A DNA stretch of 64,000 bases, taken from assembly GCA_963727525.1 (NCBI GenBank), contig CAVSGO010000005.1, forward strand, positions 224,001 through 288,000, in the 5' to 3' direction. How positions within the stretch are numbered: position 1 is the first letter of the stretch; the number at the start of each line of letters is the position of its first letter. Position numbers and translations under genes: made by a program. The notes below the pieces were generated by a model, which was not told the origin of the DNA, did not search any database, and saw nothing but the letters and a program-made list of their open reading frames with translations. This document shows, piece by piece, positions 30,582 to 53,887 of this stretch. Source of the stretch: an uncultured bacterium. Lineage in GTDB: Bacteria > Krumholzibacteriota > Krumholzibacteriia > LZORAL124-64-63.

Positions 30582-31148
30582 CTACTGGAAGAGCGCCTTC
30601 ACGTCGCTCCAGCTCTGGCTGGTCGCTCCCACCGACTGGTCGTTCAGACGCGCCACGACGGGCGTTCCGAACGAGTAGCTGCAAGGTTGCAGATCGCCAC
30701 CGCCGAAGTCCACCACCGGGAACCCATCCGGGAGACTCGAGGGATCCGAGGGGCCAAAGGTGATCTCCTCGTAGCTCGTGCTCTCGGTGTAGAAGATCGC
30801 GTTCGAGAGGACAGTCCCGGTGGGACTCACTGGAACCGGCGTGAGGAAGTGTACGATCTGGTTGGTGTTCGTGCCGGTATTCTCGCCCCAGCCCATCGAC
30901 GTGACATACACCTGGAAATCCGCCGCCGTGCAGGCGATGGAGACCTCGTAACCGGCCACCTCACTTCCCATCGCGTTCGTCAGGACGACGTACCCGATCC
31001 GGGCGTAGCCGGGAACAATGGTAGTCGCCGCGGTCTCGTAGTTGAACTCGGTGTCGCTGAAGTAGAATCCCATGACGTTGTCGTCGGCCAGCGCCGCACC
31101 CGCCACGAACGTGAACACCACCGCAAGGCTCATGAACGTGTTGCGCAT
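30582..31148 (-). CDS. Secreted hypothetical protein with SWSDVKALFQ C-terminal tail
   Basis: Signal peptide, MGFYFSD..YVVLTN..VAGYE (same pattern as the 23754 gene); GAGGAGG RBS. Confidence 0.8.
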   Translation of the reverse strand: MRNTFMSLAVVFTFVAGAALADDNVMGFYFSDTEFNYETAATTIVPGYARIGYVVLTNAMGSEVAGYEVSIACTAADFQVYVTSMGWGENTGTNTNQIVHFLTPVPVSPTGTVLSNAIFYTESTSYEEITFGPSDPSSLPDGFPVVDFGGGDLQPCSYSFGTPVVARLNDQSVGATSQSWSDVKALFQ

Positions 31149-31245
31149 GATCATCCTCCTCGTTGTGGACTCATCTGCCCATCGTGAATCCAGCGTGATC
31201 TCCATGTGTGATAGGCGGAACGTATTGTCGGAGGAGACACGGCGA

Positions 31246-32301
31246 TTACGAGCGAGAACCGACGAGCGTGCGGTATTGCCTCGCCACGCGCAGCAGCAAG
31301 GTGCCGACCACGGAGCGGCGCTGGAACTGGCGCCGCATCTCCGGCACGGCGCCGAACCGGCGCTTGAAATCCCAGAGGCTCCGCCGCCCCACGCTGCCCC
31401 CGAAGTCGACGGCCGTGAGCCCGCGCGCGCAGGCTGCCATGATGTCGAGCCAGTAGAGGAGCACCGCCGGAAACACGCCGGACTCCGTCCCTCCGCGCAC
31501 GCCGCCTTGCCAGGAGATCAGGCGTCCGCGCGACACGAAGCCGAAGTGACCGCCCAGCAGCTCGCCATCGCGGCTCACGGTGCCGAAGACCACGTCATCG
31601 GGGGCTTCTCGCATGAGATCCTGCATGAATGCCAGCGGCACGGGCGCCTGCGCGAAGCGTGCCGCGCGCTGGCGGTAAAGCTGGTACCACGGGGCCAGGC
31701 GGGCCGGATCGCGCTCTTCCCGGATAGTGCAGCCCAGCCGGAGCGAGCGATCGCGCTCGCGCCGCCGGATCCCGGCGAGATTACGCTCGGTCGCGTCCAA
31801 TCCGCCCGCGCAGGGGACGATCGCCGTACGCGTCTCGATCGCCAGCCAGGGCGGCCCCGGCGTGACCAGGGCATGACGCGCGGCGGCGTCGGCCGAGAGC
31901 GTGAACGCGGCCAGCATGCGGCAGCCGCCAACGTGATCTCCTAGCCCGCTCACGAGCGACCGGAACACGGCCGCCTGAACCTCCGGCGGAAGATCCGCCG
32001 GCACCTGCGGCCCACAGACCACACCATCCAGGCTGCTCTCCAGACGATTCATACCCCACCGCCGCCGCTCGATCACCGGCAGACAGCCCACCATCTCGCC
32101 CTCGCACTCGGCGACGAGCCAGAGCCCCCGCGCCCGCGCATAGTGGCGCGCCACGAGATCGAGCCAGAAAGCGCGTGCTGCCAGCTCGGCATCGGGTACG
32201 CGAGCAAGCAACGTCGCGAGTCCGGCCGGCGCGGCGTCGAGACCCTGGACGTGTATGGGGATTTTTAAGGCGCCGCCAGGCGATTTCGTGGATTTCGACA
32301 A
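31246..32301 (-). CDS. GNAT/FemAB-like acyltransferase (Acetyltransf_6-like)
   Basis: VDFGGS...LWDFKRRFGA C-terminal motif; start uncertain. Confidence 0.75.
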   Translation of the reverse strand: MSKSTKSPGGALKIPIHVQGLDAAPAGLATLLARVPDAELAARAFWLDLVARHYARARGLWLVAECEGEMVGCLPVIERRRWGMNRLESSLDGVVCGPQVPADLPPEVQAAVFRSLVSGLGDHVGGCRMLAAFTLSADAAARHALVTPGPPWLAIETRTAIVPCAGGLDATERNLAGIRRRERDRSLRLGCTIREERDPARLAPWYQLYRQRAARFAQAPVPLAFMQDLMREAPDDVVFGTVSRDGELLGGHFGFVSRGRLISWQGGVRGGTESGVFPAVLLYWLDIMAACARGLTAVDFGGSVGRRSLWDFKRRFGAVPEMRRQFQRRSVVGTLLLRVARQYRTLVGSRS

Positions 32302-32463
32302 GTTGGAACGGTTCCCCGCTGGGCGGACACTCGACCGCGACAGCCAACAATCTGCCGTTGACCCCTATCGCGGGGTCGGTACCTCGACGTCTCCGTAAGG
32401 ATACCACCAAGTCGCCCGCCGGGCGAGCCTGGTATTCGCAGAGTATTCGGCTCTCTTTACACC

Positions 32464-33686
32464 GTGCCACGAAGAATGTTGGCGGGTCCAGCGCTTGCCT
32501 GGGCCCGTCCTCATGAACACCAAAACACTCACTTCATGCCCTACGCTTCCTCCCCACTGCCCCAACCCTAACTGCAAATACCACAAGCCTCAGCCGCATT
32601 CCTGGCCCTTCGCGCTCTTCGGCACCTTCTCCCGAAAATCCCCGCCCTACACCGTCCAGCGCTACCTCTGCCTGGCCTGCGGCAGGACCTGCTCAGACCA
32701 GACCTTCCGCACCACATACTGGCTCAAACGCGCCGATCTCCTGCCCAAGGTCCACAAGCACGCCGTCTCAGGTGCCGCCAACCGCCAGATCGCCAGGCTC
32801 CTCGACACCTCGCCGACGACCGTCGACAACCTCCTCGCCCGCCTCGGCCGACACTGCATCCTCTTCCATCGACACCTGGTGTCCCAGGCGTCACCCTTCG
32901 TGGACATCGCCATCGACGGCCTCGTCACCTTCGAGCACTCCCAGTACTTCCCCTACGAGATCGTCACGGCCGTCGATCGCCCCTCCAGCTTCATCATCCA
33001 CTTCGCCGAGGCCGAGCGGCGACGCAGCGGGGCGATGACCGACGAGCAGAAATGGAAACGGTCCCTCTTTGAACAAAACTATGGCCGGCCGGACCCCAGG
33101 TCGTTGATGCGGGCGCTGCTCGAGGTGCTCTCGGTCTCGCTCGACGGCGCCACCGAGGCCCACATCTGGAGCGACAAGCACAAGACCTATCCCTACGCGA
33201 TCGCGAAGCTACGGTATTGCAAGGTGATCCACGAGACGATCGACTCCCGTGAGCCGCGGACGAGTCGCAACCCGTTGTTCGAGGTCAACTTGCTGGACAT
33301 GTTGCTGCGGCATTGTCTGAAAGACCACACGCGGGAGACGATCGCGTTCGGAAAGCGACGCCAGCATTCGATCTACCGGCTGGCGATCTTCCTGGTGTGG
33401 CGCAACACGATCAAGTTGCGTCGGGAGAAGCGGTGCTGGAGCACGCCGGCGATGCAGATCGGGATCGCCACGAAGCCCCTGACCGAGGAGGAGGTGTTGT
33501 CGCGGCGGCTGTTCGTGTCGCATATCGAGTTGCCGCCGTTGTGGGATGACTACTACTGGCGACGGGTCGAGACGCGGCCATTGAAGGTGAACCGGAGGCA
33601 CAAGCTGACGTACGCCGCGTAGTGAGAAAGTCGGGCCTAGCAGGCGAGATGGCGGTGCGAAGCCTCGTCAACATTCTTCTTGGCAC
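32464..33686 (+). mobile_element. IS1-like insertion sequence
   Basis: Inverted repeats GTGCCACGAAGAATGTTGGCG (32464-32484) and CGTCAACATTCTTCTTGGCAC (33666-33686), 19/21 match, bracketing a single transposase ORF. No target-site duplication found. Confidence 0.7.
32513..33622 (+). CDS. IS1-like transposase (Zn ribbon, HTH, RNase H/DDE-like core)
   Basis: CPNPNC...QRYLCLACGRT, RQIARLL..SPTTV, IAIDG, IWSD, TPAMQIGI. Confidence 0.75.
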   Translation: MNTKTLTSCPTLPPHCPNPNCKYHKPQPHSWPFALFGTFSRKSPPYTVQRYLCLACGRTCSDQTFRTTYWLKRADLLPKVHKHAVSGAANRQIARLLDTSPTTVDNLLARLGRHCILFHRHLVSQASPFVDIAIDGLVTFEHSQYFPYEIVTAVDRPSSFIIHFAEAERRRSGAMTDEQKWKRSLFEQNYGRPDPRSLMRALLEVLSVSLDGATEAHIWSDKHKTYPYAIAKLRYCKVIHETIDSREPRTSRNPLFEVNLLDMLLRHCLKDHTRETIAFGKRRQHSIYRLAIFLVWRNTIKLRREKRCWSTPAMQIGIATKPLTEEEVLSRRLFVSHIELPPLWDDYYWRRVETRPLKVNRRHKLTYAA

Positions 33687-33702
33687 AACTCAAGGTAAGC
33701 GA

Positions 33703-34656
33703 TCACCAGGGGAGATTCGCCAGGTCGACGTTCCCTCCCGAAATCACCACGCCGATGCGCCGCCCTCCGACCTCGCCACGCTTCTCGAGCAGAGCGGCCA
33801 GCCCCACGGCGCCCGAGGGTTCGATGACCAGCTTCATGCGCTCCCAGATCAGGCGCATGGCCCCTATCACGGCGGTATCGCCCACGGTGACGATGCGCTC
33901 CACGCGGTCGCGGATGATCGGGTAGGTGAGCGTGCCGAGGCTGGTGAGCAGGCCGTCGCAGATGGTCTGCGGGTTCACACTGGCGATGATCTTCCCCGCG
34001 GCGAGGGAGCGCGCCGCGTCGTCGGCGCCCGCTGGTTCGGCCGCGAGAACCCGCACACCAGGCGCCGACTCCGTGACGGCGATCGCCGTGCCGCTGAGCA
34101 AGCCGCCGCCACCGACGGGAGTCATCACCACGTCGAGACCGGGCGCCTGTTCCAGCAGTTCGAGCGCGGCCGTGCCCTGGCCGGCGATCACCCGCGCATC
34201 GTTGTAGGGATGCACGACATGCGCTCCCGTGCGCGCCACAACCTGGTCGAGCGTATCCTCGCGCGCCTGCAGCGTGGGTTCGCACGGGATGATCTCGGCG
34301 CCGTAGCCGGCCACGGCATCGCGCTTCACGGCCGGCGCCGTGCGCGGCATGACGACATAGGCCGGGATCCCGCGCACGCGGGCCGCCAGCGCCAGGGCCT
34401 GGGCGTGGTTGCCGCTGCTGTGGGTGGTCACGCCGCGCGCCGCGGTGGCGTCGTCGAGCGACTGCACGGCGTTGGTGGCGCCGCGGTACTTGAAGGCGCC
34501 CACCTTCTGCAGGTTCTCGCACTTGAAGTACACCTGCGCGTCGACAAGGGCGTCGATGGTCGCGCACGTCATCACCGGGGTGCGGTGCGCGAAGCCGGCG
34601 ATGCGGGCCTGTGCGGCGCGGATGTCGGCCAGTGTCGGGACCACGAGCTTGCTCAT
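33703..34656 (-). CDS. PLP-dependent serine/threonine dehydratase or serine racemase
   Basis: FKCENLQKVGAFKYRGA, SSGNHAQA, PVGGGGL, SGGNVD. Confidence 0.92.
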   Translation of the reverse strand: MSKLVVPTLADIRAAQARIAGFAHRTPVMTCATIDALVDAQVYFKCENLQKVGAFKYRGATNAVQSLDDATAARGVTTHSSGNHAQALALAARVRGIPAYVVMPRTAPAVKRDAVAGYGAEIIPCEPTLQAREDTLDQVVARTGAHVVHPYNDARVIAGQGTAALELLEQAPGLDVVMTPVGGGGLLSGTAIAVTESAPGVRVLAAEPAGADDAARSLAAGKIIASVNPQTICDGLLTSLGTLTYPIIRDRVERIVTVGDTAVIGAMRLIWERMKLVIEPSGAVGLAALLEKRGEVGGRRIGVVISGGNVDLANLPW

Positions 34657-37600
34657 TCCAGGGCCGCCTCCCCGGCCGGTGCGCCACGCCGGCGCCGCAG
34701 CCGGGTCTGGAGCGCATCCATGGCCTCGTAGAACACCGGCGTGACGAAAAGGGTGAGGAACTGCGAGAATAGCAGGCCGCCCACCACGGCCAGGCCCAGC
34801 GGCCGCCGCGATTCGGCGCCGGCGCCATGCGCCAGCGCGATGGGCAGCGTGCCCATGAGGGCGGCCATCGTGGTCATCATGATGGGGCGGAAGCGGATCA
34901 CGCAGGCCTCGTAGATGGCGTCGCGTGCGCTCTTGCCCTCGGTGCGCTGCGCGTGCAGCGCGAAGTCGATCATGATGATGCCGTTCTTCTTCACCAGGCC
35001 CACCAGCATGATGATGCCCACGAAGGCATAGATGCTCAGCTCCACCTTGAAGATCATGAGCGTGACGAGGGCGCCGAATCCGGCGAACGGCAGCGCCGAG
35101 AGTATGGTGAGCGGGTGGATGAAGCTCTCGTACAGGATGCCCAGTACGAGGTAGATGACGACCACCGCGAGCAGCAGGAGCAGTCCGAGACCCGCCGACG
35201 ACGACTGGAAGGCCTCCGCCGTCCCCTGGAAACTCGTCGTGACCGTGGCCGGCAGCGTGCGCGCAGCGATACTCTGCACCCTCGTCACAGCGGCCGAGAG
35301 GGCCACGCCGGGCGCCGTGTTGAACGACAGCGTCACCGCCGGGAGCTGCCCCGAGTGATTTACCGCGAGCGGGCCGGCCGTCTGGTGGATGGTCGCCAGC
35401 GCGCTCAGCGGCACCAGCGCACCGCCACTCGACGACACGTAGAGCAGTCCGAGGGAACTGGCGTCGAGCTGATACTGCGGGGCGAGCTCCATCACCACGT
35501 CATACGTGTTGTTCTGACCGTAGATCGTGGAGATGCGCCGCGACCCGTAGGCCGTGTAGAGCGCATCCTCGATGGCCTGCGGCGATACTCCCAGCGCCGA
35601 GGCGCGGTCGCGATCGATGTCCACGGACACCTGCGGATTGTTGAGCTGCATGTCGCTGGTCACGTCCTGCAGTTCCGGCAGATCGACGAGGCGGTCGAGC
35701 AGGAGCTGGCCGTAGCGGTACAGGGTATCGGTGTCCGCCGTCTGCAGCGTGTACTGGTACTCGCTCTTGGTGATGCGCCCGCCGAGCCGGATCGGCGGCG
35801 GATTCTGCAGGAACATCATGATGCCCGGCACCTGCGACGCCTTGCGGCGCAGCACCTGGATCACCTCATCGGCCGACAGCTTGCGCTCGCCGCGCGGCTT
35901 GAGTCGGATCAGGATGAAGCCGGTGTTGCTCGCATTGCTGCCGCGCGATCCGCAGCTCGACATGTACGATTCGACGTTGTCGTCGGCCGCGATGATCTGC
36001 GCCAGCGCCTGCTGATGCGCCACCAGATCCGCGTACGACACGCCCTGCGCCGCCTCGGTGCGTCCGAAGATGCGCCCGGTGTCCTCGCTGGGCAGGAAAC
36101 CCTGCGGGATGATCTTGAACAGCACCACCGTGCCGGCCAGCACCACCACCAGGAACACGAGCACGGCGCGGCCATGATCGAGCGACCAGGCCAGCCCCGT
36201 CGCATAGAGTGCCAGCGACCGCGCAAAGACCCGCTCGAGCGCGTTGTAGATCCGGCCGTGCACGCGGTCGCCCTCTGACCGCAAGAAGCGGCTACAGAGC
36301 ATGGGCGTGAGCGTGAGGGAAGCGAAACCCGAGATGAGGATGGCCGTGGCGATCACCACGCCGAATTCGCGGAACAGGCGTCCGATGATGCCGCCCATCA
36401 GCAACACGGGAATGAACACGGCGGCGAGCGACAGCGTCATCGACACGATCGTGAAGCCGATCTCCCGCGAACCCGCATACGCCGCCACGATCGCGGACTC
36501 TCCCTTTTCCATGTGGCGCACGATGTTCTCGAGCATGACGATGGCGTCGTCCACCACGAAGCCGAGCGACAGCGTGAGCGCCATGAGCGAGAGGTTGTCG
36601 AGGCTGAAGCCGAGCAGGTCCATCACCAGGAAGGTGCCGATGATCGACATCGGCAGTGCCAGGCTCGGGATCACGGTGGCGGACAGGTTGCGCAGGAAGG
36701 CGAAGATCACCAGCACCACCAGGCCCAGGGTGATGGCCAGCGTCACCTTGACGTCCTTGAGCGAGGCCTGGATCGATTCGGAGCGGTCGAAGAGCACGTT
36801 CAACGACACCGACTGCGGGAGTTGCTGCTCGAACTCGGGAAACAGCGCGCGTACCGCCTGCACCACGGCGACCGTGTTCGTGCCCGGCTGACGCTGGATG
36901 GCGAGGATCACCGAGCGCGCGTCGTTGAACCAGGCGGCCGTCTTGTCGTTCTGCACGCTATCGAGCACGTGGCCCAGCTCGGCGAGCCGCACGGCGCGGC
37001 CGCCGCGGTAGGACACGATGATGGGCCGGAACTGCTTCGCGTTCACCACCTGACCGTTCGCCTGCACCGAGTAGGCGCGGTAGCGACCGTCAAGCGCGCC
37101 GGTGGGCAAATTGACGTTGGCGCTGCGCACGGCGCCGGCCACCTGGTCGATGCCCAGACCCTGCGCGGCCAGGAGCTGCGGATCGAGCTGGATGCGCACG
37201 GCATACTTCTGCGAGCCATACACCTGCACCTGGGCCACACCCTCGACCATAGAGATGCGCTGGGCCAGGAGCGTCTCGCCGTACTCGTCGAGGGTCGATA
37301 GCGGCAGCGTCGGCGAGGTGAGCGCCACGTAGAGGATGGGCTGGTCGGCGGGGTTCACCTTGCGGAACGACGGCGGGTTGGGCATATCGGGCGGCAACTG
37401 CCCCTGCGCCACCGAGATGGCCGACTGCACGTCCTGCGCCGCCGCGTCGAGATCGCGACCGAGGTCGAATTGCAGCGTGATGCTCGTCACGCCCTGGAAG
37501 CTGGACGATGTCATCGACGAGATACCGGCGATGGTCGAGAACTGCTTCTCGAGCGGCGTGGCCACGGCCGAAGCCATGGTCTCCGGGCTGGCGCCAGGCA

Positions 37601-37751
37601 GATTGGCGGTGATGCTCAATGTCGGAAAATCCACGTTCGGCAGGTCCGACACCGGGAGCTGCCGGTAGCCGGCCAGACCGAATATGAGGATGGCCAGCGT
37701 CACGAGCGTGGTCATGATCGGCCGGCGAATGAACAGGGCCGAGAGGTTCAT
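34653..37751 (-). CDS. RND efflux permease (MdtB/MdtC-like)
   Basis: FIRRPIMT, GASPETMASAVATPLE, GFVVDDAIV, KKNGI, RFRPIMMTT. Confidence 0.93.
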   Translation of the reverse strand: MNLSALFIRRPIMTTLVTLAILIFGLAGYRQLPVSDLPNVDFPTLSITANLPGASPETMASAVATPLEKQFSTIAGISSMTSSSFQGVTSITLQFDLGRDLDAAAQDVQSAISVAQGQLPPDMPNPPSFRKVNPADQPILYVALTSPTLPLSTLDEYGETLLAQRISMVEGVAQVQVYGSQKYAVRIQLDPQLLAAQGLGIDQVAGAVRSANVNLPTGALDGRYRAYSVQANGQVVNAKQFRPIIVSYRGGRAVRLAELGHVLDSVQNDKTAAWFNDARSVILAIQRQPGTNTVAVVQAVRALFPEFEQQLPQSVSLNVLFDRSESIQASLKDVKVTLAITLGLVVLVIFAFLRNLSATVIPSLALPMSIIGTFLVMDLLGFSLDNLSLMALTLSLGFVVDDAIVMLENIVRHMEKGESAIVAAYAGSREIGFTIVSMTLSLAAVFIPVLLMGGIIGRLFREFGVVIATAILISGFASLTLTPMLCSRFLRSEGDRVHGRIYNALERVFARSLALYATGLAWSLDHGRAVLVFLVVVLAGTVVLFKIIPQGFLPSEDTGRIFGRTEAAQGVSYADLVAHQQALAQIIAADDNVESYMSSCGSRGSNASNTGFILIRLKPRGERKLSADEVIQVLRRKASQVPGIMMFLQNPPPIRLGGRITKSEYQYTLQTADTDTLYRYGQLLLDRLVDLPELQDVTSDMQLNNPQVSVDIDRDRASALGVSPQAIEDALYTAYGSRRISTIYGQNNTYDVVMELAPQYQLDASSLGLLYVSSSGGALVPLSALATIHQTAGPLAVNHSGQLPAVTLSFNTAPGVALSAAVTRVQSIAARTLPATVTTSFQGTAEAFQSSSAGLGLLLLLAVVVIYLVLGILYESFIHPLTILSALPFAGFGALVTLMIFKVELSIYAFVGIIMLVGLVKKNGIIMIDFALHAQRTEGKSARDAIYEACVIRFRPIMMTTMAALMGTLPIALAHGAGAESRRPLGLAVVGGLLFSQFLTLFVTPVFYEAMDALQTRLRRRRGAPAGEAALE

Positions 37752-38881
37752 GACGGGTTCGCCCCGCTCGTTCCCACGGCGTCCTTCTCCACGATCTTGC
37801 TGCCCGGGCGCAGCCGGAGCTGGCCGTCCGTGACCACCTTCTCGCCCACCTGCACACCGTCGGCGATGATGGCGTCGTTTCCCACGCGACGGCTCACCGT
37901 CACCGGACGCACGGCCACCGTGGCATCGTCGTTCACGACGAAGAGGTAGTCGCCGTTCTGGCCCGTGTCGATGGCCTGGGCCGGCACCGTCACCACGCCC
38001 GCGAGTTGCCGCAGCACGAGCACCGTGTTGAGGAACTCGCCCGGCCACAGGCTGTCGTCGGTGTTGGGGAACTCTGCCTTCAGCAGGATTGTGCCGGTGG
38101 ACGTGTCGACCGCGTTGTCGATGAACGTGAGCTTGCCCTCGCGCATGACGTCGGTCTCGCTCGGCGCCGTGGCCCGCACCGCCAGCGTGCCGTCAGCCGA
38201 CTGGGCGAGGATGTCCGGCAACGCCTGCTCCGGGACACTGAAGCGCACATAGATCGGCCGGATCTGGTGGATCACGGCCAGGGGGGACGCGCCCCCCGCG
38301 CTGACGAGGTTGCCGGCATCCACCAGCGTCTCGCCGATGCGCCCGGCGATGGGCGCGGCGATGGTGCAGTATGCCAGGTTGAGGCGCGCCAGCGTGACGG
38401 CGGCGGAATCAGCACTGGCCGACGCGCGCGCGGACGCGAGCTGCGACTCGAGATCGGCATTCTCCTGCACCGCCACGTAGTCCTTCTGCAAGAGCGCGGC
38501 GTAGCGCTCCATCTTGGCGGCCAGGTTGGCGGCCGTGGCGGCGTCGCGCGCGAGGTTAGCCTGTGCCGACGCCAGGGCGGCCTGGAACGGTGCGGCGTCG
38601 ATCGTGAAGATCGTCTGCCCCGCCTGCACGCGATCGCCCTCGGTGAACGCCACGCGTTCGAGGATGCCCGTCACCTGGGCCCGCACCGCCACCGACCGGA
38701 AGGCCTCCGCGTGCCCGAACGCGCTCACCTCCAGGGGCAGCGTCTTCTGCGTGGCGACCGCCGTCACCACGGGCACCGACGGCGGACCGGCCGGCCCCTT
38801 GCCGTCCTTGCATCCGCTGAGGACCAGGATCACGGCCAGGTTCAAGGCGAGGACCAGACCGACGCTGCGACCAGGGTTCAT
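37748..38881 (-). CDS. RND periplasmic adaptor (MdtA-like lipoprotein)
   Basis: Lipobox LSGC, APIAGRIG, IDNAVDTSTGT. Confidence 0.92.
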   Translation of the reverse strand: MNPGRSVGLVLALNLAVILVLSGCKDGKGPAGPPSVPVVTAVATQKTLPLEVSAFGHAEAFRSVAVRAQVTGILERVAFTEGDRVQAGQTIFTIDAAPFQAALASAQANLARDAATAANLAAKMERYAALLQKDYVAVQENADLESQLASARASASADSAAVTLARLNLAYCTIAAPIAGRIGETLVDAGNLVSAGGASPLAVIHQIRPIYVRFSVPEQALPDILAQSADGTLAVRATAPSETDVMREGKLTFIDNAVDTSTGTILLKAEFPNTDDSLWPGEFLNTVLVLRQLAGVVTVPAQAIDTGQNGDYLFVVNDDATVAVRPVTVSRRVGNDAIIADGVQVGEKVVTDGQLRLRPGSKIVEKDAVGTSGANPS

Positions 38882-40368: not shown

Positions 40369-40535
40369 GGTCGATCCTTTCACGGACGGCAAGCAAGTAG
40401 GCGCAAACATTAAATCCGAGGAGTGCCGCGCGCCATCGCGACCTCGATTGACGCGGCGTTTTCTCGTGGACGGCGCCGCGCCGCGATGCCAGAATCAGGT
40501 ATCCAACGCTCTTGCTTGAACCTGGAGGCCTGAAC

Positions 40536-41096: not shown

Positions 41097-41117
41097 CTCT
41101 GCCGATTCCGGGTGCGA

Positions 41118-41146: not shown

Positions 41147-41198
41147 GAAAGCGTGGTTCGCCCGCCAGTAGATCACCGTTCCTGGAAAGGACCACCCC

Positions 41199-43961: not shown

Positions 43962-44163
43962 GCTCGTTACCCCTCGTCTCGCCGCAGCGGTGCCTGCCCG
44001 GCATGATGCACCGTCGGGGCCGCGACGGGCCAGAATTATCCAGAGCCGCACGAATATTTAGCCGGTAGCTCGGGTTTTCGATTCGCGGCGGTCTTGCGGT
44101 GCGCTACCCTCGCCTCAGTCCGGAGGCAAGCTGTCGCGGTATCGAGATGCGAGGTGATGAGCC

Positions 44164-44835
44164 ATGGCACAGTGGTGGCAAGAATTGACGCTCGAACTGC
44201 ACATCTTCTATGCGCTCGGCATCGCCAGCACCGTCATCCTCCTGATCCAGCTCTTCATGACGGTGATCGGGCTGGACCATGATGCGGCGTTCGACGGTGG
44301 TGTCGACGGTGGTGTCGACGGCGGGGCGTTCGACGGCGGTGTCGACGGCGGGGCGTTCGACGGCGGTGTCGACGGCGGGGCGTTCGACGGCGCCGGCCTG
44401 CACGATGCCTCGGCTGCCGAGCACAGCTCCGGCCTGCACGTGCTCTCCACCCGCACGATCGTGGCCTTCCTCGCCGGCTTCGGCTGGACCGGCGTGATCG
44501 CGCGCACCGGCGGCATCTCCACCGGCCTCTCGGCGCTTGCGGCCCTGGCCGTGGGCACGGTGCTCATGTTCATGGTGTACTGGCTGATGCGCGTGCTCTA
44601 CGGGCTGCGACAGAGCGGAAATGTCGACTACCGCAACGCCATTGGTCAGGTGGGCACGGTGTACGTGCGCATTCCGGCCGCGGGCGTGGGCACCGGCCAG
44701 ATCCAGGTTCTCGTGCAGGGGCGCCTGGCGACGGTCGCCGCGGTCACCGATGGCCCCGAGAACATCACGAGCGGACGCAAGGTCAAGGTGACCGCTCAGC
44801 TCAGCGAGAGCATCCTGAAGGTCGAGGCGCTCTGA
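44164..44835 (+). CDS. NfeD-like membrane protein (flotillin partner)
   Basis: TM helices, FLAGFGW, OB-fold C-terminus (IGQVGTVYVRIP). Confidence 0.82.
   Translation: MAQWWQELTLELHIFYALGIASTVILLIQLFMTVIGLDHDAAFDGGVDGGVDGGAFDGGVDGGAFDGGVDGGAFDGAGLHDASAAEHSSGLHVLSTRTIVAFLAGFGWTGVIARTGGISTGLSALAALAVGTVLMFMVYWLMRVLYGLRQSGNVDYRNAIGQVGTVYVRIPAAGVGTGQIQVLVQGRLATVAAVTDGPENITSGRKVKVTAQLSESILKVEAL
44287..44392 (+). repeat. In-frame tandem repeat (27-bp unit AFDGGVDGG)
   Basis: GCGTTCGACGGCGGTGTCGACGGCGGG repeated about 3.5 times, with one extra 12-bp VDGG unit. Confidence 0.9.
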
Positions 44836-44875
44836 ATCACGCCGGGCGGCGGGCCCGGCCAGCGGAGGGACAATC

Positions 44876-46282: not shown

Positions 46283-47021
46283 CCACGTCGGAGCCGCGCA
46301 CGAGCGGGGATTCGCCATCCTCCACGCGCGCGGCCCCTGCCTCGTGGTCGCCAAGCCCGCCGGACTCCTCACCCAGGCGCCGGCGGGCGTCGACAGCCTC
46401 GAGACCCGCATCAAGCTCTGGCGCCATGCCACGGTCGGTGCCCCCAGGGACGGTTTCCTGGGTGTGGTCCATCGCCTCGATCGTCCCGCCACCGGCGCCA
46501 TGGTCTTCGCCTTCACGGTCCGCGCCACCCGTAATCTGAGCGGCCAGTTCGCACAGCGGACGGTGCGCAAGGAATACTGGGCGGCGGTGGAGGGCGTCGT
46601 CGACCCTCCGGCCGGCACCTGGACCGATCATCTGCGCAAGATCCCCGATCAGCCGAGGGCCGAGATCGTGCCGGCCGAACACCCGGACGCGCGCCACGCC
46701 GTCCTGCATTACCGGACGCTGGCCACCGCGCCCTGGGGTTCGTGGCTCGCGATCGCGCTCGCGACCGGCCGCACCCACCAGATCCGCGCCCAGGCCGCAA
46801 GCCGCGGCCACCCCGTCCTCGGCGACGATGCCTATGGCGCGACCACCGCGTTCGGCTCCGCCTACGACGACAAGCGATTGCAGGCCATCGCGTTGCACTC
46901 CAAAAGCCTCGACTTCGCCGACCCCGCGACCGGCGAGCCCGTGGCGGTGATCGCGCCAGTCGACACTCCCTGGAATGATCTCGGCCTGCCGGCCGCCAAT
47001 CTCCAGCCGCCACCCGCTTGA
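46275..47021 (+). CDS. RluA-family pseudouridine synthase
   Basis: KPAGL, VHRLDRPATG, TGRTHQIR, HPVLGD, LH. Confidence 0.9.
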   Translation: MPDHVGAAHERGFAILHARGPCLVVAKPAGLLTQAPAGVDSLETRIKLWRHATVGAPRDGFLGVVHRLDRPATGAMVFAFTVRATRNLSGQFAQRTVRKEYWAAVEGVVDPPAGTWTDHLRKIPDQPRAEIVPAEHPDARHAVLHYRTLATAPWGSWLAIALATGRTHQIRAQAASRGHPVLGDDAYGATTAFGSAYDDKRLQAIALHSKSLDFADPATGEPVAVIAPVDTPWNDLGLPAANLQPPPA

Positions 47022-47141
47022 CACCGTCCTCGCGAATCCCGGCCACGAGGACAACCCTCAATCGCTGCGCGAATGGTCCGACTATTGATCATCAGTATCC
47101 GGTCCCGGATATCCATGGCTTTTTGCGAAAGGCGGCCTGCC

Positions 47142-47807
47142 ATGCACTTGCGCCTCATCGCGTCCATCGCGCTCGCCCTGATCGTGCTGGCGCCGACCGC
47201 TTGGGCGGCCGACCTCGCGGTCGATCTCGACGCCGGCACCCGTGCCGGTTTCGGCGGCCAGGTCAGCGGCCTGCTCACCCAGTTCACCCCCGGCGCTCCG
47301 CTGGCGCTCCGTGCCGGTCTGGGCTACTTCTCGCACACACCGACGAATCCCTACGATGCGCGCCACGTGTTCATCAATGACAACACCAACGGCACGCCCG
47401 AGAAGACCGGCCATCTCTGGACCATGAACTTCGACCTGCTCGTGCCGGTCGGCCATTTCGGCATGCAGACCGTGACGCTCGTCACGGGCGTGCGGTACTC
47501 GCACTACACCGCCCACTTCCAGTACATCGGCGGCAACGAGAGCTTCGACGTGGTCGGCAACCCGTGGGGCGTGGGCCTGGGCCTGGAGACCGCGTTCCGC
47601 ACCGGCGACCATTCCGCATTCGTCCTGAAGGCGGGCGTCGATCACTACTTCGACGCCGAGCTGACAGGGCATGACACGACCTACGCGCCCGACGGCGTCG
47701 ACGTGAACCCGCGCGACGGCTACACGTACGACGACGCCAAGGCGGCCACGAATCCTCCCACCTACGAGATCGTGGGCATGATCGGCTGGCGCATGGGACT
47801 GAAGTGA
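47142..47807 (+). CDS. Outer-membrane beta-barrel protein
   Basis: Signal peptide, alternating amphipathic beta strands, long loops (FINDNTNGTPEK). Confidence 0.7.
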   Translation: MHLRLIASIALALIVLAPTAWAADLAVDLDAGTRAGFGGQVSGLLTQFTPGAPLALRAGLGYFSHTPTNPYDARHVFINDNTNGTPEKTGHLWTMNFDLLVPVGHFGMQTVTLVTGVRYSHYTAHFQYIGGNESFDVVGNPWGVGLGLETAFRTGDHSAFVLKAGVDHYFDAELTGHDTTYAPDGVDVNPRDGYTYDDAKAATNPPTYEIVGMIGWRMGLK

Positions 47808-47840
47808 TCGCGGGGAGCTCCCGCATCCCCGCAGCGCTCG

Positions 47841-47866
47841 CGAGGCCCCGGTAATCCGGGGCCTCG
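47841..47866 (+). terminator. Hairpin terminator
   Basis: CGAGGCCCCGG-TAAT-CCGGGGCCTCG. Confidence 0.65.
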
Positions 47867-48054
47867 TCGCCGAGCCACGCCGACAACGTCTTGTCCTGTC
47901 GTACCACGTTCCGTAAGACGTCGCCCACCCCGGGTGCCGGCGCGAGTCGAGCACCGCGCGCGGATGCGCGCTCGGATGCGATTTGACCTCGACGACCACC
48001 CTGGTTTACACTCTCGGACCCTCCGACCCTGACATTCGAGCAAGGGAGCGTACC

Positions 48055-50541
48055 ATGAATCACCGCGAACGCCTGTTCTGCCTCGTCCTGGCGGTCGCGC
48101 TCGCCGCGAGCGCGTCGGCCGCATCGTTCGACACGCTGACCGGCGAGCCCATCCCGGCCCCGTCGCGCGACGTCCCCGCCGTCATGCCGCCCCCGTTGCC
48201 CGCGGACGGGCTGCGCGACGGCCTCACCCTCATTGCCCACCTCGCCGAGGGCACGAGCAAGGAGGTGCGGGCGCTCGGCGGCAACTTCATCGTGTGGCAG
48301 AACGGGGCCTGGCTCGAGTTCTTCGACGTCAGCACGCCGGCTAGCCCCGTCCGCGTGGCGCGCTGGCTGCTGGCGGCGCAGCCGTCGGACATGACCGTCG
48401 TCGGCACCACGCTGTACGTGGCCCTGCGCAAGACCGAAGGTCTGCTGGCGCTCGACGTGAGCGACCCCACCGCCCCGACCCTGCTCGACCAGCTCACGGG
48501 GTACGACATGCTCTCGGTCTGTGTGGAAGGCACGTACGCGTATTGCGGCCTCGGGTCGACAGGAGTCGTCATCGTGGACGTGAGCGACGCCCACGCCATG
48601 TCGGCGCTCACGACCTTCGACACGCCCGGTTCCGCCAACGGCACCGCCATCGCCGGCAACACCCTCTACGTGGCGCAGGGCACGAGCGGTCTGGGTATCT
48701 ACGACGTGACGTTCCCGGCGGCGCCCGCGGCGCTGGGCTCCTACGCCACGGGAAGCTTCAATACCTTCGTGGCCGTGCAGAACGACGTGGCCTATCTCGC
48801 CGGCAACTTCGGACTCATCACCGTGAACGTGGCCATCCCCACCGTACCGACGCTGCTCGCGACCCTCGGCGTGGGCGACACCACGTACGAGATGGATTTG
48901 CACGGCGACGAGCTGTACCTCGCCGGCCTGAGCGGCGCCGTGCGCGTGGACATCAGCGATCCGGCGGCACCCGCGATCCTCGCGCAGTCGGCGGTGGCCG
49001 GCGGCCTTTCCGTGGCGGTGGTCGGCGACGCCGCGTTCCTCGCGGATCGCTTCATCGGCCTGCGCGCCTACGCTGCGCTGACGCTGGCACCGATCGGCGT
49101 GACGCGCAACGCTGGCTTCTCGAACCGCGTGCACCTCGTGGGGCCCTACCTGTACGTGGTAGATCTCGGCGGCGGCCTGCGCATCTGGGATATCACCGAT
49201 CCTGCCAACGCCACCATGCTGTCGGCCACGGACCTGCCTGCCAACAGCCAGGACGTGTTCGTGGACGGTGCGGTGGCCTATGTAGTGAACGCGAACAACA
49301 GCGGCGAGGGCCTGAAGGTTCTCGACGTGAGCGACCCCGCGGCGCCGACGTTGCTCGCCTCCTACAACACCCAGAACCAGGGCTATGGGCTCGACGTGCA
49401 GAACGACCGCGTCTACATCGCCAATGGTTTCGGCGGCCTCGACGTGGTCGACGTGTCCAACCCGACGGCACCCGCCGACCTGGGCGGCTTCGCCTTCGGC
49501 GCCAACGCGTTCGACACCAAGGTCGACGGTTCGGTGGCCTATATGGCACTTTTCGGTGGCGGTATGGCCAGCGTCGACGTGAGCGATCCCGGTTCCATCT
49601 CGCTGCTCGACCAGCAGATCGGCTGGGGCTTCCTCAACGCCCTCGACATCGCCGCGGGTTACGCGTGGGTGGCCGACGGCCAGTACGGCCTGCGCGTCGT
49701 CGACATCAGCGATCCGTCCAATCTGGTCACCCTGGGTACGGCCGGCATCTCCGGCCAGGCGCGTGACGTGGTGTGGAACGGCTACGTCTACGCCGGTGAC
49801 GATTTCTACGGCCTGCGCCAGTTCGACGTCACCGATCCCACGGCCCCCGTTCTGGCCGGCAGCTTCCCCAGTGCCGACCGCGGCATGGGCGTGGACGCGG
49901 CTGACGAGATCGTGGTGCTCGCCGCCGGCGAGGCCGGCGTGTACCTATTCCAGGGCCCGCCTCCCGTGGCCGCCGCCACCGGCATGCTCACGGCGCTGGT
50001 GAACCAGCAGGCGGTGTCGCTCACCATCAGCGGCAACACCGCCGCCGCTGGCGACCTCGTGGTCACACGCACGACGGACGACGCCACCGCGGCCCGCACC
50101 TGGACCGCCGCCGAGTTCGACGGCCTGCAGGTCGCCGGCAGCAGCGTGAGCGCCCACCTCGTCGACCACGATGCGGTCGGTTTCCCACGTACCTACACCC
50201 TGGCCCTGCACACCGCCGGTGGCGACATCGCGCTCGCCGAGACGCGCGTCACGGGCGGGCTGCCAACGGCGCTGCAGCTCACGGCCGCGCCCAACCCGTT
50301 CAATCCGCAGCTCACCGTCGCCTTCGCGCTACCGGCGCCGTCGCCGGTGACCGTGGCGATCTACGACGCCGCGGGCCGCCTGGTGCGCACCTTCGACCTC
50401 GGCCAGCGCCCGGCCGGCCCGGGTCAGGTTGTCTGGAACGGCCGCGACACGTCTGGACAGGCCTGCGCGAGCGGCGTCTATGCGCTGCGGCTCACGGCAG
50501 GCGACCGTGTCACGAGCCAGACGGTAACCCTGGTGAAGTGA
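48055..50541 (+). CDS. LVIVD-repeat secreted protein with FlgD-Ig C-terminal domain
   Basis: Many GLxVxD[VI]S[DN]PxxP repeats; AAPNPFNP...VTLVK. Confidence 0.88.
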   Translation: MNHRERLFCLVLAVALAASASAASFDTLTGEPIPAPSRDVPAVMPPPLPADGLRDGLTLIAHLAEGTSKEVRALGGNFIVWQNGAWLEFFDVSTPASPVRVARWLLAAQPSDMTVVGTTLYVALRKTEGLLALDVSDPTAPTLLDQLTGYDMLSVCVEGTYAYCGLGSTGVVIVDVSDAHAMSALTTFDTPGSANGTAIAGNTLYVAQGTSGLGIYDVTFPAAPAALGSYATGSFNTFVAVQNDVAYLAGNFGLITVNVAIPTVPTLLATLGVGDTTYEMDLHGDELYLAGLSGAVRVDISDPAAPAILAQSAVAGGLSVAVVGDAAFLADRFIGLRAYAALTLAPIGVTRNAGFSNRVHLVGPYLYVVDLGGGLRIWDITDPANATMLSATDLPANSQDVFVDGAVAYVVNANNSGEGLKVLDVSDPAAPTLLASYNTQNQGYGLDVQNDRVYIANGFGGLDVVDVSNPTAPADLGGFAFGANAFDTKVDGSVAYMALFGGGMASVDVSDPGSISLLDQQIGWGFLNALDIAAGYAWVADGQYGLRVVDISDPSNLVTLGTAGISGQARDVVWNGYVYAGDDFYGLRQFDVTDPTAPVLAGSFPSADRGMGVDAADEIVVLAAGEAGVYLFQGPPPVAAATGMLTALVNQQAVSLTISGNTAAAGDLVVTRTTDDATAARTWTAAEFDGLQVAGSSVSAHLVDHDAVGFPRTYTLALHTAGGDIALAETRVTGGLPTALQLTAAPNPFNPQLTVAFALPAPSPVTVAIYDAAGRLVRTFDLGQRPAGPGQVVWNGRDTSGQACASGVYALRLTAGDRVTSQTVTLVK

Positions 50542-50552
50542 TTCCCCCTGAC

Positions 50553-50596
50553 AAACGGCGAGGCTCGCACCACTGCGGTGCGAGCCTCGCCCGTTT
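50553..50596. terminator. Bidirectional terminator
   Basis: GGCGAGGCTCGCACC / GGTGCGAGCCTCGCC stem with AAAC and GTTT flanks. Confidence 0.8.
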
Positions 50597-50614
50597 CCGG
50601 CAACATGACAGCAA

Positions 50615-51229
50615 CTACTGGAAGAGAGCCTTCACCTGGCTCCAGCTCGTCGCCTCATCCGCGACGGTGCCCTGGTCGATCACGGCGTTGTCGACATACA
50701 TCGACGACAGGCTGCTCGGATCGGCGCCCGTGACGGCGGAGAGTTGCATCGTGAGGATGTCGGTGCCGCTGGGAGCCGTGAACGTCCCGGTGATCGTCGT
50801 CCAGTCGGCCGGGGAATACGGCCCGAGGACCGGGGTCTGTCCGATGACGCCCACGCCGCCCTGCTCGGCGAAGATCTGGACGAAGAACACGCCGCCGACG
50901 GCCACCTGGCCGACCTTCAGATCGACCGCGAAGTCGACGGGACCCGGTACGGCGTTGCCGATATCCGTCAACTGCTTCAGCGTCAGGTTGAGGGCCTGGC
51001 CATGGTTGTCCATGAACGCGCAATGGGTGCCAGGCGCGCCGATACCGTTGTCGCCGGCCAGGACGGAGATACTCGCATCCGGTCCTGCGCCATAGACGAG
51101 CCAGCCGGTGAGGTCTCCCATCTCGAATCCCGGGTTCACGAGCAGGTTGTCGGCGGCGGCAGCGCCGACAAACGCGACGGTCAGCGCGAGCAGAGCCGCG
51201 CCACGGATCACGATCTTCACGATAGACAT
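50615..51229 (-). CDS. Secreted CBM4/9-like protein with SWSQVKALFQ tail
   Basis: Signal peptide, NLLVNPGFE.G..GW, WTTITGTFTAP, YVDN. Confidence 0.8.
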   Translation of the reverse strand: MSIVKIVIRGAALLALTVAFVGAAAADNLLVNPGFEMGDLTGWLVYGAGPDASISVLAGDNGIGAPGTHCAFMDNHGQALNLTLKQLTDIGNAVPGPVDFAVDLKVGQVAVGGVFFVQIFAEQGGVGVIGQTPVLGPYSPADWTTITGTFTAPSGTDILTMQLSAVTGADPSSLSSMYVDNAVIDQGTVADEATSWSQVKALFQ

Positions 51230-51282
51230 GGTCGAATCTCCTTTGTTGGATAGTGACTCCTGGGTTCGCCCGGGGATCATAC

Positions 51283-51307
51283 ACTATGTTCGGTTACCGA
51301 ACATAGT
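51283..51307. promoter_or_regulatory. Perfect palindromic operator (IclR/ROK-like)
   Basis: ACTATGTTCGGT-T-ACCGAACATAGT, 12-bp arms, in the AT-rich divergent promoter region. Confidence 0.75.
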
Positions 51308-51468
51308 AAAAAAAGATGGAAATATCGGCCTTGAATTGGCAAACAACTGGCGAAAAAGATCGCCATGATATTCTCTATTGTGCGGGCTCCGTACAAAGTA
51401 TATGATCGCGAGGTCCTCGCGGCGGTCGCGACGACGATCGACCCCTCACCCCTCCCGGAGAGACCCTC

Positions 51469-53259
51469 ATGAAGACCCCGTCCCTCGCCTTCGCGCTCGT
51501 CCTCCTGGCGACCGGCGCCGCCCATGCCCAGATCGGTCCCCTGCTCTGGCAGGACAACTGCGACGACCTCGCGAACTGGATCGTCCTGACGGGCAACGGC
51601 GCCTGGGGCTGGGGCAACGGGGAGCTGGAGTACTACTCCGAGAACAACGTCAGCATCGCCGACGTCGCCGGCGAGCCGGGCAACCACGCCTTGCGCCTGA
51701 CGGCGCGCGAGGAGAGCGGCCCGGAAATCGTCGACCAGTGGGGCAACCCGCTGCACTACACGTCGGGCCGCGTGATGTCGCGCTCGTTCGTCACGGTGCA
51801 ATACGGCATGATCGAGGCGCGCGTGCGTGTGCCGGACCTCGACCTGGGTGGCTGGCCGGCCATCTGGCTGCTCGGCAACGCCAACTTCGCCTGGCCGCGC
51901 AGCGGCGAGATCGACCTGCTCGAGATGGGCAGCCACCAGAGCTTCCGCGACCTGCACGACGAGCACAACGGCGGCGACGGTCTCGACCACGCCACCGTGA
52001 ACCAGGCGGTGAGTGCCAACGCGCTGTTCTACACCGACACCGCCGTGTCGCCCGACAATCCCTCCGGCGCGGCGAGTCTGGCCTGGGACCCCGAAGACCT
52101 GTACTGCCGCCCCTACTACGACATGACCGCGGGCCTCACCGACCGCTTCCTCACTTACCGCCTCTACTGGGACGTCGACAGCCTGCGCATGACGGTGATC
52201 GACGGCGGCGAGGAGCGCGAACTGTTCACGTCGCCCTTCACGATCGACGACGAGTCGGACGAGTTCCGCCACCCCTTCTATCTTCTCGCCAACCTGGCCA
52301 TTGGCGGCTCCTTCACCGACGCCTATAACCTCGGCGATCCCGGCAGCGGACTGCCCGTGTCCATGCCCTTCCCGGCCACGATGGACATCGACTACATCCG
52401 CGTCTTCGAGTGGAACGGCCAGGGCGACGTGCACCTGGGCCCGCCGCCGTTCGCGCAGGGCAGCTTCGGCGTCTTCACGGACACCACGCCGGTCGACGAC
52501 GCCTTCGTGCCCGGCGAGAATGCCGAGATCTACGTGTGGGAAGGCACCCTCACCGACGGCAACATCCCGCCCCACGAGGGCGACCACGTGCTATCGTGGC
52601 AGACCACCGGCCTGGGCTGGTTTGGCGCCGGCATCATGGCACACCAGCCGCTCAACCTCTTCGACTTCGGCGACGGCAACCTCGAGTTCTGGATCAAGAT
52701 CCCCGCCAACGTCACCTTCAAAATCGGCGTCATCGACTCGTGGGGTAATCAGCACTACGTGGAGTTCCCCGCGTTCCAGACCACGTACGGCCTCGTGCGC
52801 AACGGCGAGTGGGGCCAGGCGGCCATCCCGGTGAATGATCTGCGCGGCGTTGCGATCGACCTGCGCATGCTCAGCTACGCCTTCGTCATCCTCGAGGAGC
52901 ATGGTACGGCCTGCACGTTCGCCATCGACGACATCGTGTGGACCGGCGGCGGCACCACGGCCACACCCGACGCAGGCACGGCGCCGGCCGTGACCCTGCT
53001 GCCCAGTGCGCCGAACCCGTTCAACGCCATGACAGAGATCCGCTTCGAAATGCCTCTGCCCGGCCCTTACGCCATCGACGTGTACGACATCGCGGGTCGG
53101 CGCGTGCGCCGCTTCTCGGGCATCGGCGAAGCGGGCCGCAACACCCTCCTGTGGGACGGCCGGGACGATGCGGGCGCCACCGCAGCCTCCGGCGTCTACA
53201 CGTATCGCGTGCAGGCCGGCGGCGCCGCCGTCAGCGGGACCATGATGATGGTGAAGTAG
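51469..53259 (+). CDS. GH16 beta-1,3-glucanase with CBM-like domain and FlgD-Ig C-terminal domain
   Basis: GWGNGELEYY, YTSGR, WPAIWLL, WPRSGEIDLLE (ExDxxE), NLAIGG, DYIRV; PNPFN. Confidence 0.92.
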   Translation: MKTPSLAFALVLLATGAAHAQIGPLLWQDNCDDLANWIVLTGNGAWGWGNGELEYYSENNVSIADVAGEPGNHALRLTAREESGPEIVDQWGNPLHYTSGRVMSRSFVTVQYGMIEARVRVPDLDLGGWPAIWLLGNANFAWPRSGEIDLLEMGSHQSFRDLHDEHNGGDGLDHATVNQAVSANALFYTDTAVSPDNPSGAASLAWDPEDLYCRPYYDMTAGLTDRFLTYRLYWDVDSLRMTVIDGGEERELFTSPFTIDDESDEFRHPFYLLANLAIGGSFTDAYNLGDPGSGLPVSMPFPATMDIDYIRVFEWNGQGDVHLGPPPFAQGSFGVFTDTTPVDDAFVPGENAEIYVWEGTLTDGNIPPHEGDHVLSWQTTGLGWFGAGIMAHQPLNLFDFGDGNLEFWIKIPANVTFKIGVIDSWGNQHYVEFPAFQTTYGLVRNGEWGQAAIPVNDLRGVAIDLRMLSYAFVILEEHGTACTFAIDDIVWTGGGTTATPDAGTAPAVTLLPSAPNPFNAMTEIRFEMPLPGPYAIDVYDIAGRRVRRFSGIGEAGRNTLLWDGRDDAGATAASGVYTYRVQAGGAAVSGTMMMVK

Positions 53260-53485
53260 GCCATCGCGTTGGCACGCGGGCGAGGCCACGCTTCCCGAAC
53301 GGAGACGAAGCTCGCAACACGATGGTGCGAGTTCCACCCATGACCGGTCTTGACCCGGGCTCCGAATCCGACGATCACGTATATATGATAATATTTCTCG
53401 TATTTTTTGACCCCGGACCTGCGGCCCTGTGATACCATGGCGGTGCTGCCGGAAACCACCGTCAGCGTCGCCCTGGAGGATACCT

Positions 53486-53887
53486 ATGCGCAAATTCATG
53501 CATGCCCTTGGTATCGCCACGCTGGTTCTCGCCCTGGCGGGCGTGGCGGTCGCGGATACGTTCAACGTGAGCATCGGCGATAGCTTCTACTCACCGGCCG
53601 ACCTCGCCATCCACGTCGGGGACATGGTCGTGTGGACGAACAACGGATTGCACCAGCACACTGTCGATCAGAGCATGACCGATATGTCGTGCGATGTCTT
53701 CCCCGGTGGGTTCTCCTCGGGGACCCTCAACCCCGGGGATTCCTACAACTGGACCGCCACGAGCGCGAGCGACATCTACTACCACTGTATGTTCCACTGC
53801 CCGTCGATGGCGGCGCGGCTCACCGTCGAGGATGGTGTCGCCGCCGAGCCGTCGTCCTGGAGCACCATCAAGTCGCTCTACCGCTGA
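53486..53887 (+). CDS. Plastocyanin-like cupredoxin with SWSTIKSLYR tail
   Basis: Signal peptide, GD.V.W.N..HT, YHCMFHCPSM (type-1 Cu His/Cys/His/Met). Confidence 0.85.
   Translation: MRKFMHALGIATLVLALAGVAVADTFNVSIGDSFYSPADLAIHVGDMVVWTNNGLHQHTVDQSMTDMSCDVFPGGFSSGTLNPGDSYNWTATSASDIYYHCMFHCPSMAARLTVEDGVAAEPSSWSTIKSLYR

Follow-up and report, generated by a model that had tools for sequence, protein, structure and literature searches.

A short conserved C-terminal tail on exported proteins of Krumholzibacteriota: a candidate docking or anchoring peptide

The tail-bearing proteins of the window

Three exported proteins encoded in a 64,000-nucleotide stretch of an uncultured Krumholzibacteriota genome (assembly GCA_963727525.1, contig CAVSGO010000005.1, here C5, positions 224,001 to 288,000; hereafter the window) end in nearly the same tail of 16 residues (Table 1). 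The initial annotation of the window, made from the sequence alone, had described this tail as shared by exported proteins with unrelated cores, and both parts of the description were borne out. In each of the three genes the stop codon follows the tail directly, and the tails fit the pattern V-[AG]-x4-S-W-S-x-[VI]-K-[AS]-L-[FY]-x-stop (3/3). The N-termini of all three proteins are signal-peptide-like, and the cores match differing families or none. The protein at 50,615 has a CBM_4_9 match just under the Pfam cut-off (E 2e-5), and the protein at 53,486 matches a plastocyanin model (E 2e-6) and cupredoxin models, likewise below the cut-off. No Pfam or NCBIfam family matched the protein at 30,582. 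The gene at 53,486 lies 227 bp 3' of a GH16-like gene whose product ends in a C-terminal domain (CTD) of the FlgD/type IX secretion system (T9SS) kind.

An AlphaFold2 (AF2) model of the 30,582 protein, built with 21 orthologues, comprises a beta-sandwich (residues 25–168) at a predicted local distance difference test score (pLDDT) of ~90, a linker of low confidence (169–179), and a helix (180–186) at pLDDT ~55–60 that is not packed on the core. Foldseek likens the sandwich to cohesins, which make up nearly all of its top matches (E 3e-4 to 4e-3, template modelling scores of 0.4–0.6). The tail is kept in 21/21 orthologues of this protein, including those at 44–67% identity, with the lysine of the motif replaced by arginine in some.

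Table 1. Features of the window and related loci in the same genome. Positions without a contig name (C3 to C8) are counted from the first base of the window.
Feature	Position	Strand	Remarks
Cohesin-like beta-sandwich exported protein, 188 aa	30582..31148	-	Signal peptide, sandwich, flexible linker, tail
Tail VGATSQSWSDVKALFQ, 16 residues	30585..30632	-	Open reading frame and tail-profile match
Exported protein with weak CBM_4_9, 204 aa	50615..51229	-	Tail at end; open reading frame and Pfam
Tail VADEATSWSQVKALFQ, 16 residues	50618..50665	-	Tail profile E 9.9e-10
Cupredoxin-like exported protein, 133 aa	53486..53887	+	Tail at end; open reading frame and Pfam
Tail VAAEPSSWSTIKSLYR, 16 residues	53837..53884	+	Tail profile E 6.8e-9
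FlgD/T9SS-type CTD on very large exported protein	22662..22916	+	Frame ends at 22919
FlgD/T9SS-type CTD on 271-aa protein	23757..24011	-	Frame ends at 23754; FlgD_ig E 5e-10; TIGR04183 26.3 bits (cut-off 23)
FlgD/T9SS-type CTD on LVIVD-repeat protein	50284..50538	+	Frame ends at 50541
FlgD/T9SS-type CTD on GH16-like protein	53002..53256	+	Frame ends at 53259
Fifth FlgD/T9SS-type CTD of the window	61651..61905	+	Frame ends at 61908
Cohesin-like gene with CTD	23754..24713	-	
Dockerin-like protein	24620..25378	-	
Second dockerin-like protein	C7:1688707-1689375	-	35% identical to the first, E 1e-25
HTH_38 frame, probable transposase	32495..33622	+	
Lipoprotein L036	C5:12450-13112		Member of the multi-motif family, single tail
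Tricorn-like protease, 1173 aa	C5:16673-20194	-	PD40 repeats, Tricorn_C1, PDZ, Peptidase_S41
Internal tail-like match	C5:375363-375714	-	
Internal tail-like match	C5:65609-65858	-	
Tail-bearing beta-helix gene	C7:5880-7094		
Identical beta-helix gene	C8:263359-264573		
PorV-like barrel beside TonB-dependent receptor	C7:666969-676935		
PorV-like barrel beside TonB-dependent receptor	C8:23062-29002		
PorV-like barrel beside TonB-dependent receptor	C3:383121-392187		Locus includes a tail gene

Abundance, position and conservation of the tail

The genome that contains the window measures 4.66 Mb in 8 contigs at ~68% G+C and is 96.7% complete. Its six-frame translation (9,329,380 residues) has 82 matches to the loose regular expression W[SGATN].[IVLM]K.[LMIVF][FYW] and only two to the reversed motif, which served as control. 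The motif is thus not rare, and it seldom occurs internally: 80 of the 82 matches, each in an open reading frame (ORF) of its own, lie no more than five residues before the stop, with one residue between motif and stop in 65, none in two, two in six, three in four and five in three. A profile hidden Markov model (HMM) of 76 tails found essentially the same set, at 83 places. The sole two internal matches are in short ORFs that run past a tail-like sequence and are probably decayed gene ends or wrong-frame read-through. Seventy-nine of the terminal matches are distinct, the remaining one belonging to an identical pair of beta-helix genes on contigs C7 and C8; each has an identical small CTD gene upstream, and the pair stems from a recent duplication or else from a repeat in the assembly.

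The consensus of the 80 tails is V-[AP]-[TV]-E-[PA]-x-[ST]-W-[GS]-x-[VI]-K-[SA]-L-[FY]-[R/Q/E]. Aligned on the tryptophan as position 0, they are conserved from -7 to +8. Upstream of W we find V at -7 (58/80), A or P at -6 (56/80), T, V or A at -5 (69/80), E at -4 (51/80, with Q in 11 and D in 6), P, A or S at -3 (61/80) and T or S at -1 (62/80). Downstream follow G (53/80) or S (27/80) at +1, V, I or L at +3 (80/80), K at +4, S or A at +5 (74/80), L at +6 (63/80), F (48/80) or Y (30/80) at +7, and R (36/80) or one of E, Q, N and D (27/80) at +8. A cysteine often stands ~9–14 residues before the tryptophan (within 16 residues in 27/80 tails, and in many tails of other genomes too), and may form a disulfide that closes the end of the passenger domain.

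The carriers were examined for signal peptides with a crude home-made heuristic, applied to tail ORFs of at least 150 aa (n = 72); eight shorter tail ORFs, several of which look like fragments, were excluded, and an earlier, laxer version of the test, which 315 of 600 controls passed, was dropped. Signal peptides were called in 66/72 tail ORFs and 164/225 CTD ORFs, compared with 167/1000 control ORFs of high G+C content at third codon positions. By this measure the tail sits mainly on signal-peptide proteins. A Pfam domain is present in 26 of the 80 carriers, in every case of an extracellular or binding type and never overlapping the tail; Beta_helix/NosD occurs in 10 and CHRD in three, the others being DUF642, PPC, LTD, Calx-beta, NIDO, DUF7450, Temptin_C, MAM-like, CBM_4_9 and cupredoxin. 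The carriers are exported and have unrelated cores. They are also small, with a median length of 230 aa versus 762 aa for CTD ORFs (measured from stop to stop).

The initial annotation had called the signal lineage-specific, and this part of its account does not hold, as the tail is found in at least two phyla of the GTDB. The tail profile matched 21/21 relatives and 145 of 151 genomes sampled from the same phylum (E<=1e-4). All of the five remaining genomes that were looked at (the sixth being G102) have weaker matches, with tails visible at ORF ends and a weaker upstream part; since tails are present in all genomes of the phylum looked at, the phylum provides no negative set for phylogenetic profiling. 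Tails were likewise found in 12/12 genomes at E<=1e-6 in the phylum of genome G154, which is a distinct phylum irrespective of record labels because it consists of just 12 genomes. A strict DNA-pattern scan of one genome per GTDB species returned at least 119 stretches. The pattern admitted TGG in the stop position and placed no constraint on the codon before it, yet in the 80 loci that were parsed 91/91 matches have a true stop and most have R as their final residue. Among the matches listed, the record labels are Eisenbacteria, Latescibacterota, Krumholzibacteriia, Fibrobacteraceae, Gemmatimonadota and Verrucomicrobia, but these labels are unreliable; one Latescibacterota-labelled genome (G153) is the same as a genome of our own phylum sample (G110), with identical coordinates and scores. 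A search of 1.84 billion cluster representatives yielded 1530 matching proteins at E<=1e-3, and in 143 of the 150 best the motif lies six or fewer residues from the end.

We considered it scarcely credible that the similarity has no protein function and merely reflects a DNA element at gene ends, chance, or recent duplication of a single gene end. The tail is conserved as protein and not as DNA: information is highest at second codon positions (1.21 bits, versus 0.89 at first and 0.75 at third), serine is encoded by both AGC and TCG and synonymous codons vary freely, and the 30 bases past the stop hold 0.11 bits. Unrelated cores, the 82 matches set against two for the reversed motif, and retention of the tail in diverged orthologues and in two phyla speak against such an origin as well. 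Its one point of support is a mobile element: the zones within 6 kb of tail genes make up 18% of the genome but contain 14 of the 35 insertion-sequence copies. Within the reach of sequence analysis, we can rule out both an artefact and an origin at the DNA level. The element in question is an HTH_38 ORF of ~375–379 aa, seen in the window (Table 1) and numbering 35 near-identical copies in the whole genome, and is probably an insertion-sequence transposase.

No characterised family accounts for the tail. None of the NCBIfam models matches the 76 tails at E<=10 apart from three single chance matches, no Pfam family matches more than two of 148 tails at the same threshold, and PDB sequences gave 0 matches at E<=10. 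The T9SS-related models TIGR04183, PF18962 and PF13860 matched neither the three window tail proteins nor the 80 full-length carriers nor the isolated tails (sets of 76 and 148). The literature searched gave no relevant description of the motif, or of C-terminal tags or T9SS in Krumholzibacteriota, Eisenbacteria or Latescibacteria. Judged by sequence comparison, the tail is a real, abundant and conserved terminal tag of exported proteins that has not been described.

More than one motif occurs in four of the 150 best cluster representatives, all from a single family without a Pfam match. P0023 is a lipoprotein with four tandem motifs (its AF2 model has a mean pLDDT of 37), P0053 has two tandem motifs, and P0041 and P0044 each carry two as well, the first immediately following the signal peptide and the second C-terminal. 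L036, the member of this family in our genome, has a single tail and is the only clear lipoprotein among the carriers there; two public members of the family are lipoproteins too. Since it also stands at the N-terminus or in tandem, the motif does not depend on a free C-terminus, and its copies can multiply. Variable copy number and occurrence at either terminus argue for a binding module that gains by avidity, not for a signal that is cut off at the C-terminus.

Relation to T9SS domains and to other terminal signals

The initial annotation had noted that five other window proteins end in a FlgD/T9SS-like domain, and all five were located (Table 1). With a local CTD HMM made from the four clearest of them in one iteration, 233 ORFs genome-wide were found to have the domain at the very C-terminus. 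The two endings were proposed to be mutually exclusive, and we found no ORF that has both, either among 77 tail ORFs of this genome or among the 128 tail ORFs at 119 loci from other genomes, where 42 CTD ORFs also occur. The further proposal that the endings are interchangeable is supported genome-wide: with endings removed, 21 of 73 tail cores match cores of CTD proteins at E<=1e-5, 10 of these at E<=1e-39. The pair cited for it in the window (at 23,754 and 30,582) is itself a weak case (E=0.006, 28% identity over 106 residues); in a homologue search, the core of the 23,754 protein found no homologue besides itself. From these core comparisons, the tail appears to be an alternative to the FlgD/T9SS-type CTD for the same kinds of passenger. 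A CTD gene lies directly upstream on the same strand of 9/80 tail genes versus 30/1000 controls, a modest enrichment that we take as clustering of secretome genes.

The T9SS CTD of type A (TIGR04183/PF18962, here of the FlgD_ig PF13860 kind) resembles the tail in several respects: it is C-terminal on Sec-exported proteins with many unrelated cores, is present in many copies per genome and in the same genomes, and alternates with the tail on homologous cores. It is unlike the tail in that its ~85 residues fold as an Ig-like domain with V-K at the end, whereas the tail has 16 residues, predicted to form a linker and a two-turn helix.

It is possible, though rather unlikely, that the tail is a third class of T9SS signal, recognized by a PorV- or PorP-like carrier at the SprA translocon and so directing its passenger across the outer membrane. 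Exclusivity and interchange with the CTD on homologous cores speak for this reading, and the genome encodes SprA as well as PorV, which comes after PorU (a match of 436 bits, exceeding the cut-off); it also has four additional PorV-like barrels. FlgD-type CTD proteins were present in every tail-bearing genome tested (5/5 and 4/4), and SprA in 5/5 and 4/5 tail-bearing genomes in two tests. A carrier specific to the tail would also be consistent with PMC10994853 and PMC12618676, according to which carrier proteins of Flavobacterium differ between CTD classes. However, known T9SS signals are folded Ig-like domains of ~70–100 residues and no CTD model matched the much shorter tail, and the motif is also found at the mature N-terminus and as tandem copies. 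Of the four extra PorV-like barrels, three are beside TonB-dependent receptors, which suggests uptake loci. The genome moreover encodes two secretins, so that other outer-membrane routes may exist. A complex prediction without controls for PorV (residues 26–340, 28-row alignment) and the tail (148-row alignment) scored 0.01 against a mark of 0.32, and weighs neither for nor against this reading.

The loci of these three PorV-like barrels (Table 1) also hold CTD genes and, on contig C3, one tail gene. Their layout resembles that of a polysaccharide-utilisation locus.

Tripartite sorting signals (LPXTG/sortase, PEP-CTERM/exosortase, GlyGly-CTERM/rhombosortase and MYXO-CTERM/myxosortase) are, like the tail, short C-terminal tags of unrelated exported proteins, with the same domains seen with different endings and with E-P in a signature. 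As outlined in passages of 10.1101/2023.06.07.544157, they combine a signature motif with a transmembrane helix and a cluster of Arg residues; the orphan WGxxGxxG-CTERM mentioned there is a different model from the tail. The tail differs from these signals in that it can be N-terminal or tandem and has no hydrophobic span and no basic cluster, there being a single R after the motif in 36/80 tails. It was correctly described as free of a transmembrane helix, since just 8–9 residues follow the tryptophan and the invariant lysine lies midway in them. An exosortase route, suggested by the E-P of the motif, was rejected, there being no exosortase (PF09721) match in the genome. PEP-CTERM (TIGR02595) had 0 matches in the genome and also 0 in every control genome, in a survey that did not extend to sortase, rhombosortase or CPBP.

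A processing or covalent site, in which a periplasmic enzyme would link the lysine to peptidoglycan, lipopolysaccharide (LPS) or protein, or a C-terminal peptidase would cut within V-A-T-E-P, appears very doubtful. The lysine is invariant in the 80 regex-selected tails, the glutamate at -4 and the valine at -7 are the prevailing residues at their positions, and the spacing between motif and C-terminus hardly varies. The genome also encodes four tricorn-like S41 peptidases that have PDZ domains, one of them (Table 1) two genes from L036. Usual PDZ ligands do not end in variable polar residues, and the last residue of the tail is variable and mostly polar. Further evidence against such a site comes from the replacement of K by R in some orthologues of the 30,582 protein, from the failure to find an enzyme gene linked to tail genes, and from the lack of exosortase and PEP-CTERM matches in a genome that is 96.7% complete.

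A putative docking or anchoring peptide

The reading that we tentatively prefer, with a confidence that falls a little short of even, is that the tail is a modular docking or anchoring peptide of ~16 residues, retained on Sec-exported proteins and recognized by a conserved partner in the cell envelope. Of the roles offered by the initial annotation (sorting, anchoring or docking), docking or anchoring is favored, and a classical cleaved C-terminal sorting signal is disfavored, because motifs occur in tandem and directly after the signal peptide. That the same residues are kept so strictly in two or more GTDB phyla favors a specific partner over an unspecific membrane affinity. We infer retention, binding and the protein nature of the partner from these features taken together.

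Under this reading the passenger domain would fold after export and the tail would remain attached to it by a flexible linker. Its last 9–10 residues would form a two-turn helix presenting W, V/I, L and F/Y on a single face, and the small residues at +1 (G/S) and +5 (S/A) would permit close packing of this helix. The helix would then bind a conserved component of the cell envelope non-covalently, most likely a protein, and so hold the passenger on the envelope.

The short amphipathic helix proposed at the outset is weakly supported. The AF2 model of the 30,582 protein does place a helix on a flexible linker, albeit at low confidence, and in the helix W, V/I, L and F/Y fall on one side with K/R beside them. 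The hydrophobic moment of 0.41 is nonetheless modest relative to 0.31 +/- 0.15 for shuffled tails, 26% of which reach it, and the mean hydrophobicity is low (0.10). These values bear on the improbable alternative that the tail is an in-plane amphipathic anchor resting on a lipid surface (inner or outer membrane, or LPS) with no protein receptor. A short terminal helix with aromatic and aliphatic residues on one face and basic residues beside them is what such an anchor would require, and membrane-targeting helices of the MinD and FtsA type tolerate tandem copies and either terminus, as the motif does. Against it are the modest hydrophobic moment, a final residue that is acidic or an amide in 30/80 tails, and the invariance of W and K also in tails that were not selected by the regular expression; the retention of exact residues across phyla is unusual for lipid binding.

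Retained docking peptides have parallels in known systems. PTS1 and its TPR receptor, encapsulin cargo-loading peptides and the MinD/FtsA-type helices likewise place diverse cargo by means of a very short peptide at one terminus, joined through a flexible linker. These peptides act in the cytoplasm, however, whereas carriers of the tail have Sec signal peptides. The dockerin is another small module, one that serves docking, not catalysis; like the tail, it is found on dozens of secreted proteins of diverse kinds, mostly at their C-termini and occasionally at the N-terminus or in repeats. Dockerins are ~60–70 residues long with two calcium-binding repeats; the tail has no such repeats, no receptor module was found for it, and the dockerin model PF00404 matched none of the 148 tails at E<=10.

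Two loci of the genome bear on this comparison in a different way. The dockerin-like proteins listed in Table 1 have C-termini that look like a double repeat, with Dockerin_1 matches below the cut-off (E 0.16 and 0.78), and the gene immediately downstream of each is cohesin-like, in one case with a CTD and in the other with a tail. These loci may represent cohesin–dockerin pairing in a Gram-negative candidate phylum. Anchoring scaffoldins carry a cell-surface anchor, and if the pairs are genuine, the tail and CTD would by analogy stand where a scaffoldin has its anchoring module, in agreement with an anchoring role.

Several observations weigh against a docking or anchoring peptide with a conserved partner. 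A search for a partner gene, made within 6 kb of each of the 80 tail genes and at the 119 loci of other genomes, turned up no recurrent neighbour without a tail apart from generic families (ABC ATPases, histidine kinases, Ser/Thr kinases, of which 6/21 are near tail genes with no enrichment, and the insertion sequence). The cohesin-like domain was considered as a universal receptor and rejected, its family being found in 2/5 tail-bearing genomes, so that this domain cannot be a universal partner. Strictly terminal copies make up more than 95% of the total, a restriction that a pure binding module would not need, the tail helix is predicted at low confidence (pLDDT ~60), and the evidence for signal peptides comes from a home-made heuristic. 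Other roles, for example as an oligomerisation tag or a degron, take up what probability remains.

C-terminal tags largely set the destination of bacterial surface and secreted proteins, and LPXTG, PEP-CTERM and the T9SS CTD each led to new machinery. We put at about even the chance that candidate phyla of the Fibrobacteres–Chlorobi–Bacteroidetes (FCB) group possess, beside T9SS, a second system for placing proteins in the envelope, in which the tail is a universal docking peptide for a conserved receptor or carrier. In the present genome this system would serve ~80 proteins, alongside ~230 with a CTD. If so, the tail would be the smallest known tag of its kind in two-membrane bacteria, and proteins with two to four tags would be multivalent adaptors. 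The carriers, ~80 per genome in this phylum, are now annotated as hypothetical proteins because Pfam and NCBIfam have no model of the tail, and a tail profile would improve annotation of the secretome of Krumholzibacteriota-like bacteria. The tail also gives a handle on its partner, by phylogenetic profiling or peptide pull-down, and a small autonomous docking peptide, if this is what it is, could possibly serve as a compact display tag.

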